From IMG/VR virus record IMGVR_UViG_3300020045_017028, positions 1 through 44,699 of that record: 44,699 nt of DNA; one strand, 5' to 3'. The position numbers and the translations under genes were made by a program. Below the pieces are notes generated by a model that ran no database searches, was not told the DNA's origin, and saw nothing but the letters and a program-made list of their open reading frames with translations. The stretch comes from a virus. Lineage: Duplodnaviria; Caudoviricetes. This document shows positions 9,715-13,025 of this stretch, piece after piece (position 1 is the stretch's first letter; every line of letters starts with the position of its first letter).

Positions 9715-10161
9715 TTATAAATACATTCTGAATTTGATAACCTCATTAAGAAGTTGACCATCTGAGTATGCATCAGAATTTCTTAATTGGCCTGATGATG
9801 TTTCAAGAAGTAAAACTGTATCAGAATTTTTTCCTAATCTCCATGTACCTGCAGAATAAGAGTACACATTTGAATTAACTGTAGGAACTTGTCCAGGAAA
9901 AACACCTGTTAATGAGTACACTCCAGTAGAAACTCTTGCCATAGTTATTGGGCCAAATTCATTTAAAAATGTTACACTTACAGTAGGTGCGTTTGTCCCT
10001 GCTTGTGATACCCTTGCTTCAAACTCAATGTATGGCCTTATGTATTCCTTTACAACATCTACATCAAAAGATGCGTTATCTACTCCTGAAAGACCTACAA
10101 GTTTTTCAGTTCCGTTCATTACGGTTACTTCTGTAAAGTCTGAAAATTTAACGTCTGCCAT
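9715..10161 (-). CDS. Putative tail-tube decoration/short fibre protein
   Basis: 148 aa, beta-rich. N-terminus MADVKFSDF resembles the MAxxK(I/F)SxL starts of phage fibre/decoration proteins. Directly downstream of the tail tube gene. Confidence 0.55.
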   Translation of the reverse strand: MADVKFSDFTEVTVMNGTEKLVGLSGVDNASFDVDVVKEYIRPYIEFEARVSQAGTNAPTVSVTFLNEFGPITMARVSTGVYSLTGVFPGQVPTVNSNVYSYSAGTWRLGKNSDTVLLLETSSGQLRNSDAYSDGQLLNEVIKFRMYL

Positions 10162-10173
10162 AATATGTTTTTT

Positions 10174-10200
10174 AAAAGTAGCGTTATTTCTAACGCTACT
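10174..10200 (-). terminator. Intrinsic terminator after the frameshift-extended tail tube gene
   Basis: Perfect 10-bp stem AGTAGCGTTA-GAAA-TAACGCTACT followed by TTT on the minus strand. Confidence 0.75.
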
Positions 10201-10205
10201 GTGAA

Positions 10206-10281
10206 TTATTCAGGAACTATTGTATCGCCGGATTCTGTGACCAGACCATCGCCGGCTTCCGTGGTCAGTCTTGCGTTAGGG
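10206..10281 (-). other. Programmed +1 frameshift site (CCC-TAA) and 23-codon extension of the tail tube protein
   Basis: The gene ends ATT CCC TAA. The +1 frame reads NARLTTEAGDGLVTESGDTIVPE* with its stop at 10206-10208, just before the terminator. Confidence 0.8.
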
Positions 10282-11223
10282 AATCAAAATATCAACTCCA
10301 TTTTCGCTTGCATCATAACCGGAAATAGACGGTGTTGCAGTAAACCATGTTTTTGGAGAAGATCCTACAACATGGAATGTTTGACCTGTAGCAAATACAC
10401 CTGTCAATTCAACCTGTCCATTTACAATTGCAGCTGCAGATGGAGTTATAACAACTCCTGTTGCTTTGTTTGTAACAATGAACAAATCTTCATTTTCAAG
10501 TTTAACACCAAGTTTTGCAACCAGGTCTGTTTCAGCACAAAGTGTTTGTACATCCAAATACAATTTTGTTGTAGTTGAAGGTGTAGAACCTTTATTTATT
10601 GCAACGTCAATCAGGCCAACCAAAGATAATAGTTCGTAACCACCTGTAAGAATGATACCGTTTTTAATCATCTCAACAGGGCTCATTGAAATCTGGAATC
10701 TGTTTTTGTAAGGAGTTGTTTTAAAGTCACCCAATACAGGAGATGGAGCATACATGAATTTTGGAGATAACCCTGAAATTTTCAGAGTTAAACCTTTTCC
10801 ATCTCTACGTGCAAGAATTTTTCCTTCAATATCAATTTCAATAAGGTCGTAACCGGAACCAAGCATTGACTGTAATGCTTCGGCAAAACAAAGTCCGCCT
10901 TTAATTGTTTCAAAGGTTCTGTTGTAAATACCATACATTAAGAATACAATCGTTCCATCATCAAGAGTAACTGTAACGTCACTTTCGGCAGAGTTAGTAA
11001 CTGTAACTATTGGAGCCTTTTGTCCAAATAGCGGGTAAATTCTTTTACCTTTATCTTCGTGCAATAATGGAGTAAAGAAGGTCATTGGCTCTTCAAGATC
11101 TACAAAATCGCATTCGAAATCGTCAGGAACCAATAAAAACATTGCAGGTGCAAGCATTGCTACGTCGCACTCGCCACCGGTGTTTTTCATTGAGTTGCCT
11201 TGTTTACATGCTTTAACTATCAT
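10276..11223 (-). CDS. Major tail (tube) protein with C-terminal beta-sandwich extension
   Basis: 315 aa. N-terminal C....NTG..C pattern seen in Bacteroidota-phage tube proteins. Lies between the neck genes and the tape measure gene. Confidence 0.75.
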   Translation of the reverse strand: MIVKACKQGNSMKNTGGECDVAMLAPAMFLLVPDDFECDFVDLEEPMTFFTPLLHEDKGKRIYPLFGQKAPIVTVTNSAESDVTVTLDDGTIVFLMYGIYNRTFETIKGGLCFAEALQSMLGSGYDLIEIDIEGKILARRDGKGLTLKISGLSPKFMYAPSPVLGDFKTTPYKNRFQISMSPVEMIKNGIILTGGYELLSLVGLIDVAINKGSTPSTTTKLYLDVQTLCAETDLVAKLGVKLENEDLFIVTNKATGVVITPSAAAIVNGQVELTGVFATGQTFHVVGSSPKTWFTATPSISGYDASENGVDILIP

Positions 11224-11745: not shown

Positions 11746-12594
11746 CTAAAATCCAAAAAGGTTAACTCCTCCAATTTTACAAATTTCATTAGTATAACAA
11801 TAATTACTACTGCTATACTCAGGGTACATTACAGAATTATCGGCGTTTTTTTGTTTCCTCAAAAAATAAGCGCAAGCACGTCCGTCTTTTGAGAAGTTCA
11901 TCCAAGCCTTTATCATTTTATCTGCAGGTGATACGCTAACACCTGATTCAGATTTACTTGTTTTAGAACCAACGCCTGTTGTTTGAACAGCATTTGTCTC
12001 TTGCAAATAAAAGTAAATATAATATGCAATAAGGCTAGTGTCAAGCGATTCTCCATAAACAAGACCTTTCCATTTTTCATTTGTACCTGTTATATAAGAA
12101 CCGTAAATTAACTTATCCATCCTTTCAGATGTTTCAGTTAAAAGTAAATCGTAAAGACGATCTCCTATTACTTTTGACATACACTCTGGTTCATAACGCT
12201 CTATAAACGAATTTAATTTTTCAAGAGATGCGTCACCAACTTTCGCAATGTTTGGTATATTTATATCTCTGATAAAAAAACCGTTACTTATTAAGTAAGA
12301 GCCAAAAGGATAAACAACTGTTCTTGCTGGCTGGAAATGTACATTGTACCACTGATTTAAAGCAAACTCGTCATCTGCTATTATTAAAGCAAATGAACCG
12401 GTATCAGGATTCCATGAATAATCAAAGTTTTTAATCATTGGAGATCTTCTTCCAACTTCTGATATTATTATCTCGTATCCACGGTAGTCAGGTTTTCCTA
12501 ATGTTCCGTCAAAAACAAAAGACGACGAACCTGCAACAAGTCCGGCTGTTACACCAACTCGTATCTGTTCGTCGTTTTTTACAATCAATGCCAT
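11746..12594 (-). CDS. Putative head-tail adaptor with an extra N-terminal domain
   Basis: C-terminal helical part (LNSFIERYEPE..SLIAYYIYF..TTGVG) resembles Bacteroidota-phage adaptors. The N-terminal 86 aa are paralogous to part of the gene at 1-1142. Confidence 0.6.
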   Translation of the reverse strand: MALIVKNDEQIRVGVTAGLVAGSSSFVFDGTLGKPDYRGYEIIISEVGRRSPMIKNFDYSWNPDTGSFALIIADDEFALNQWYNVHFQPARTVVYPFGSYLISNGFFIRDINIPNIAKVGDASLEKLNSFIERYEPECMSKVIGDRLYDLLLTETSERMDKLIYGSYITGTNEKWKGLVYGESLDTSLIAYYIYFYLQETNAVQTTGVGSKTSKSESGVSVSPADKMIKAWMNFSKDGRACAYFLRKQKNADNSVMYPEYSSSNYCYTNEICKIGGVNLFGF

Positions 12595-12614: not shown

Positions 12615-13025
12615 TTACTTCTTAGCTGTTGCTATTGGACGGAGATAACCTTTTACTGTTGTACCTCCGCTTTGCAAGACATAATATCTTTTATAAAGCG
12701 GATTTGTTACAGTCCATGTTTTCTCATTTACGGCTGCATTTGAAAGTGTGAGTGTATCTCCAACAGGCTTCCATGTTCCTGTGCTATCCCAGGTAGTTCC
12801 ATACAATCTTACTGTTCCTGCCATTGTACCACTTGTTCGTGAAACCAAAACCTGTATCTGCATTATTGAACTTGAACCAGGTGTTATATCCAAATAAGAA
12901 GTATCAACTGTTGCGTCACTGATTATTGACTGGGGATTTGTGACAGTTCCCTTAAATTTTGTTTGGGCGTCTGATACCGAAAGCATTCCGGCTATAAACG
13001 TAGCCAATAAAAGAAACTTTTTCAT
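12615..13025 (-). CDS. Signal-peptide-bearing beta-sandwich protein, possible capsid decoration
   Basis: Starts MKKFLLLATFIAGMLSVSDA|QTK (Sec/SPase I-like), followed by a T/S/V-rich beta domain. Directly downstream of the capsid gene. Confidence 0.6.
   Translation of the reverse strand: MKKFLLLATFIAGMLSVSDAQTKFKGTVTNPQSIISDATVDTSYLDITPGSSSIMQIQVLVSRTSGTMAGTVRLYGTTWDSTGTWKPVGDTLTLSNAAVNEKTWTVTNPLYKRYYVLQSGGTTVKGYLRPIATAKK

Follow-up and report, generated by a model that had tools for sequence, protein, structure and literature searches.

A candidate docking tag, probably added by +1 ribosomal frameshifting to the likely tail tube protein of an uncultured phage

Gene Organization of the Tail Locus

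The window, by which we mean the whole stretch of DNA analysed here, is a 44.7-kb virus record with an overall GC content of 34%. The top matches of its capsid protein among isolated phages are Flavobacterium phages (28%), and for this reason a host among the Bacteroidota is likely. The part of interest is the end of a 315-aa gene and the few hundred bases behind it, where the following features are found:

Upstream of the 315-aa gene: terminase, portal, protease and capsid genes (from gene order)
10276..11223, minus strand: 315-aa likely major tail (tube) protein (from gene order and the position of a homologue in phage Arctus_1)
10270..10287, minus strand: predicted +1 shift site, CCC (10281-10279) then TAA (10278-10276) (from the rarity of CCC and 18 bases identical with the related locus L033)
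10206..10277, minus strand: +1-frame extension, 23 codons and a stop (from translation and a tag of two LxTExG units)
10177..10200, minus strand: terminator-like hairpin with a 10-bp stem and a short U tail (z of -5.2, 0 of 200 shuffles)
9715..10161, minus strand: 148-aa protein, predicted partner of the tag (from a match to the KIS profile)
Downstream of the 315-aa gene: a tail protein and a 1102-aa tape-measure-like gene (from gene order)

The 315-aa protein is made of an N-terminal core of about 215 aa and a C-terminal domain of about 95 aa whose final residue is a proline. Searches of Pfam, PHROGs and the PDB gave no name for it, and tblastn among isolated phages found no tube homologue. 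A 305-aa homologue is however present at the same gene position in Leeuwenhoekiella phage Arctus_1, and this shared position makes a tail tube its likely identity. In all, 145 homologues were found. Since 107 of the 120 that are listed (own protein counted) stop at the same proline, this residue is taken as structural, and it is therefore the choice of its codon that is informative.

The family is variable in other respects. In ten of the listed homologues (419-431 aa) the last domain is present once more, and in all five that were checked it has been duplicated as a unit. L014 (6001-7959) and L015 encode a tube homologue of some 653 aa in which repeated beta-rich domains form a long insert between the core and the last domain. 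Behind the tube gene of many relatives (L001, L002, L003, L004, L008, L011, L013, L016, L018, L019, L023, L024, L041, and L047) there is a conserved-looking gene of 57-137 aa, absent from the window and from L033. The only GTDB match of the family, L029 (SSFP01000025.1), is a contig of a MAG labelled Polynucleobacter, whereas the isolate matches point instead to Bacteroidota phages.

Two further genes of the window deserve mention. The 282-aa protein encoded at 11746-12594 has an N-terminal domain of about 95 aa which is present in some relatives only, and a second copy of this domain was recognized by eye in a minus-strand ORF (about 1-1145) cut by the left end of the window. Directly behind the capsid gene, 12615-13025 (minus strand) encodes a 136-aa protein with a signal-peptide-like start; 17 of the loci L001-L051 (duplicates counted) have a homologue in the same place, and family searches (Pfam, PHROGs) gave no name for it.

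The +1-Frame Extension and the Hairpin Behind It

An earlier note on this DNA had stated that the tube gene ends in CCC-TAA and that the +1 frame then runs on for 23 codons containing a tandem repeat. Both statements are borne out: the last codons of the 315-aa ORF (11223-10276) are indeed CCC and TAA, and the exact 23 residues are reproduced by the frame 10277-10209, which is closed by a TAA at 10208-10206. This frame is devoid of ATG, GTG, and TTG codons. Gene callers do not see the extension. It encodes two tandem LxTExG units, the first residue of the tag being 20 aa from the stop. Its GC content of 53% exceeds the 37% of the tube gene and the 27% of the 44 bases of spacer that follow, so that the contrast with intergenic DNA drawn in the note is real. 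When a profile made of 48 tags from other phages was compared with the 1690 six-frame segments of the window, this 25-codon frame was the sole match (E 3e-9, next E 1), a result which is partly circular because the pattern used for the scan came from the window peptide itself. The view that the extension is not a folded Ig domain is likewise upheld by its length of 23 residues and by the tag family being without a match in Pfam or the PDB.

The hairpin (10200-10177) begins six bases past the stop of the extension. The note had the extension stopping just before a terminator, which is right as to position, but a consensus terminator scan did not call this hairpin, its U tail being short. In 32 of the 33 close relatives that are free of cargo, meaning any such extension of the tube gene, the best hairpin starts at most 45 bases from the tube stop; in the window the distance is 69 bases.

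The Tag Family and Its Candidate Partner Gene

How common is this short peptide? Viral contigs (IMG/VR) were searched for DNA encoding LxTExGxxLxTExG, and 120 loci were returned; from 4 of the 64 parts of the database, the number of such stretches in IMG/VR is estimated at about 2200. Judged by its sequence, the LxTExG peptide is a member of a widespread and unnamed tag family, for which no entry was found in Pfam, PHROGs or the PDB, any more than for the KIS module described below. The next gene could be called in 95 of the 120 loci, of which 67 are non-redundant. Tags lying within 45 aa of the stop were classed as C-terminal, and in the scanned tags the motif most often starts 20 aa from the stop, the same as in the window.

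What sets the C-terminal tags apart is the gene that follows. This gene starts with MAxxKISxL (hereafter KIS) in 34 of the 44 non-redundant C-terminal-tag loci but in 0 of the 23 internal ones (Fisher p 2e-10). The profile used in this test was made from the window gene and 15 hand-chosen N-termini of the knob family (see below), not from the scanned loci, and a regex version of the test gave 32/44 against 1/23. Both the tag carriers and the bodies of the fibres differ between loci. A pair of this kind, gp79/gp78, is present in the isolated and cultured Erythrobacter phage R6L, in which the tag is in frame on a tail protein. In L266 (2542-4188), there are two tandem copies of a major tail protein, one carrying an Ig domain and the other a tag-like 20-mer at its end, followed by a KIS-knob gene; here gene duplication may do what a frameshift would do in the window. 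The L266 tag, which scores 2.3 bits by the strict profile, was recognized by eye, as were those of L296 and L331 (2-4 bits for the three).

Other arrangements of the tag were also seen. In L272 (2850-3424), a 41-aa Cys-rich ORF found two genes behind the capsid gene contains little beyond the tag; in L276 (3009-4438), two successive tagged proteins precede one KIS-knob gene. The internal tags of L352, L358, L361, L367, L368, L375, and others cluster in two positions: at roughly 100-120 aa from the end of a single protein family, presumably P22 gp10-like, and at roughly 60 aa from the end of a neck protein, presumably T4-like. None of the 120 tags looked frameshift-derived, as judged by inspection of those with up to 70 upstream codons and a frame closed at the 5′ end.

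The reverse question was asked of the knob family, by taking 80 of its 523 loci (47 non-redundant). A strict tag lies upstream of 2 of the 11 KIS-positive genes and of 0 of the 36 KIS-negative ones (p 0.05). A tag is therefore a predictor of a KIS gene next door, whereas a KIS module can do without a tag beside it. Among five isolate regions, the C-terminal tag is directly upstream in one, tag-like repeats occur near the N-terminus of the neighbour in two, and two have neither; the elemo phage region has no tag. In the literature, covered mostly through open-access main texts, no account was found either of a pairing of tag and KIS module or of a docking peptide added by frameshifting, which is weak evidence of absence.

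In the window, the gene that follows the tag encodes a 148-aa protein composed of an N-terminal KIS module (about 40 aa) and a C-terminal beta-rich “knob,” which is also found at the end of long Bacteroidota-phage fibres. The protein has 44 relatives. A KIS profile drawn from 28 scanned loci of other phages, after regex filtering, has this gene as its sole match among the 1690 six-frame segments of the window (E 6e-5, next 0.5), and no match to the protein was found in the other tube loci L001-L051. The family sequence matched no PDB chain, and Pfam, PHROGs, and the PDB provided no name for the knob. A match to a short fibre of phage 7-7-1 in the KIS/knob searches is weak (E 0.08). Identity of the module with the Mtd_N/HylP fibre cap (PF18454) was considered and rejected, as 0 of 57 KIS-family members match it at E 0.05.

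The suggestion that the extension is a docking tag for the next gene product is thus supported, both by the pairing of tag and KIS genes across unrelated phages and by the KIS module with which the 148-aa protein starts. Even with a genuine shift, the tag might bind some other partner, a metal or a surface, the gene pairing being the mere trace of a split cassette transferred together. That 9 of the 11 KIS-module genes lack an adjacent tag, that 23 of the 67 non-redundant tags lie internally and are not followed by a KIS gene, and that a hairpin separates the tag from the 148-aa gene in the window would all fit such a reading; it accounts less well for a pairing that persists across unrelated carriers and unrelated fibre bodies, or for a window in which tag and KIS gene are each unique and from whose fellow tube loci both are absent. 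We consider it unlikely, and hold it to be rather probable that the tag docks onto the KIS module of the 148-aa protein.

The Predicted Shift Site

If the tag is to reach the tube protein, the ribosome has to change frame at its last sense codon. The tube gene ends with a CCC followed directly by a stop, and the codon met in the +1 frame is CCU. In 19 large genes of the window, CCC accounts for 4 of the 316 proline codons (1.3%) and CCT for 164 (52%). For comparison, 58 tube-like ORFs were kept, those running off contig ends or more than 90% identical over the last 80 residues having been dropped, and 35 of them are close (E under 1e-50). The final residue is proline in 29 of these 35, encoded by CCA in 16, CCT in 7, CCG in 4, and CCC in only two, the window and L033. 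These are also the only two with cargo: in the other close loci a long +1 frame is that of the following gene, which has a start of its own, and a motif scan of these loci found no tag. A quick tree of the tubes places both in one 19-row clade (support 95), and it is for these two that the DNA was compared. A distant homologue, L230 (11005-11016), does end in CCC-TAA, with two +1 codons only and no cargo, in a stretch where CCC makes up 18% of proline codons.

By its capsid protein, L033 is the closest relative of the window that was fetched (73%). The two tubes are 52% identical, and the same codon is used at 77 of their 161 identical residues; across the shift site, the two loci share 18 identical bases, the last six of which lie past the stop. 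The +1 frame of L033 is 231 codons long, reaches up to the start of the next gene and encodes a LamG/ConA-like domain. Similarity of this cargo to PHROG 10356 (virion protein) begins at residue 8 and that to an Erythrobacter phage protein at residue 6, while its first possible start is codon 20, downstream of both points. In databases the L033 cargo is mis-started. The conservation in relatives that the earlier note had proposed to look for is found for the site, kept in L033, and not for the peptide, which occurs in no tube homologue fetched.

Because CCC is rare, because L033, an independent relative with a start-less cargo of another kind, has kept the site, and because the hairpin lies behind the extension, a +1 ribosomal frameshift at CCC-TAA appears very likely. 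No 3′ stimulatory RNA structure was found at the site (z about 0). The -1 frame at the tube end is without the motif. DNA-pattern scans for further CCC-TAA tube genes came up with 10 stretches in one case and 120 in the other (the second covered 38 of 64 parts), not one of which contained a tube gene, and a single-protein viral scan found no further case.

The extension might also be an untranslated relic, the out-of-frame remnant of a once in-frame tube-tag fusion or of an inserted tag-plus-fibre cassette. In keeping with this, tags are in frame everywhere else they were seen, the high GC content of the extension suggests recent acquisition, and CCC-TAA without cargo does occur once, in L230. 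Yet the supposed relic is an intact tag, at the usual 20 aa from its stop, joined at a CCC that makes up 1.3% of proline codons, and L033 has a different and equally intact cargo at the very same junction, which makes decay an improbable explanation. More doubtful still is separate synthesis of the peptide, whether from the CTG at codon 4 as a non-AUG start, by re-initiation or by read-through of the stop. Free-standing tag ORFs of 40-60 aa are indeed known from other phages, but these have normal starts and an N-terminal part of their own, and the window frame has no ATG, GTG, or TTG; read-through would yield an unrelated 21-aa basic peptide without the motif and was rejected, and in L033 the similarity of the cargo begins upstream of any start codon. 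Least credible is an assembly error in this single uncultured contig, by which one extra C would have split an in-frame 337-aa tube-tag protein, given that L033, a separate metagenome contig, has the same CCC-TAA context and that among the 120 listed homologues 107 stop at this proline and 0 carry an in-frame tag at the C-terminus.

A Proposed Model for Tag-Mediated Docking

Ribosomal slippage at CCC-TAA remains the preferred reading, and the following sequence of events may be proposed. During the pause at the stop codon, the peptidyl-tRNAPro would in all likelihood re-pair from CCC to CCU, as in SPP1, so that the tail would come to hold both plain and tagged tube subunits. The tag, predicted to consist of three short hydrophobic strands with TExG turns between them, would hang from the outer C-terminal domain of about 95 aa. 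There an oligomer of the 148-aa protein would be bound through its KIS module, probably in the manner of beta-strand addition, and the knobs would be displayed along the tail, in a number capped by the shift rate. Such appendages probably would serve in weak adhesion to the host surface, as is supposed for the LamG-like cargo of L033.

Taken together, shift and docking make the tag a reasonably likely socket for the 148-aa protein. A broader proposal, on which we see the balance as about even, is that LxTExG and KIS are a general plug-and-socket pair, grafted onto tail tubes and onto neck, terminator, and baseplate proteins to receive interchangeable fibres. In the window the socket would lie behind a ribosomal slip, so that recoding alone would set the number of fibres, and the same slip site would serve to exchange one cargo for another, a covalent lectin domain in L033 and a socket for a separate protein in the window.

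If this is true, a tag of 20 residues and an unnamed module of 40 would account for the attachment of many phage fibres that are otherwise unannotated, and the position of a fibre on the virion could be predicted from the protein that carries the tag. Recoding would then be a means of stoichiometry control for a non-covalent appendage, and not for a fused domain.

Comparison with Known Systems

The nearest precedent for the proposed recoding is the gp17.1/gp17.1* pair of SPP1, in which, according to the excerpts of the two papers used here, a +1 shift at CCCUAA gives the two forms in a 3:1 ratio (PMC6316719, PMC8718954). The mechanism is the same as that proposed for the window, and the pattern of rare CCC and common CCT is also described for the SPP1 site (PMC6316719, in the part excerpted). 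The cargo is not the same: according to these excerpts SPP1 adds an 87-aa folded FN3 domain which is itself the adhesin, whereas the 23-aa peptide of the window is predicted to recruit a separate protein. As the extension is not a folded Ig/FN3 domain, the window is best seen as a variant of gp17.1*. The hosts differ too, SPP1 being a Bacillus phage and the window phage probably one of Bacteroidota.

Listeria phages are the second precedent. The earlier note had cited both SPP1 and PSA for CCC-UAA, which is right for SPP1; the shift site in the tsh tail gene of PSA, A118, and A500 is CCC_UGA (PMC5009743, excerpted text). Following the same excerpt, these phages shift to +1 at a final CCC, as is predicted for the window, and both have a genome of low GC content in which this codon is rare; the tsh extensions are discussed there among Ig-like domains (PMC5009743). 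PSA, as described in that part of the source, also shifts in its capsid gene; a second frameshift was considered in the window and rejected, as its capsid gene ends in CCT-TAA without a tag.

For the docking step, the closest solved model is provided by the chain-like “rope-and-dimer” fibres of the podophages A1002, GP4, and VP1, in which, on the basis of the excerpted text, small fibre proteins of 140-170 aa dock on linear carrier sites by beta-sheet augmentation (PMC13730344). The excerpt describes many sites on one in-frame rope, on a podovirus tail and with no frameshift, where the window would have a single tag.

A fainter likeness involves the crAss001 tail fibre gp22 (PDB 7QOJ), in which residues 28-56 bear a weak resemblance to the KIS module (E 1.8 in the PDB search); in a pairwise comparison with a Kehishuvirus tailspike, the probability is 73% (E 3e-5). 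In the excerpted description, gp22 is a trimeric fibre attached via its N-terminus, the hub binding residues 1-26 and not the KIS-like stretch, and no tag partner is described there (PMC10172136). This weak likeness hints that the KIS partner might be trimeric.

On our analysis, then, the recoding would be already known, from gp17.1* of SPP1 and from the tsh genes of Listeria phages. What would be new is the nature of the cargo, a socket in the place of a folded domain.
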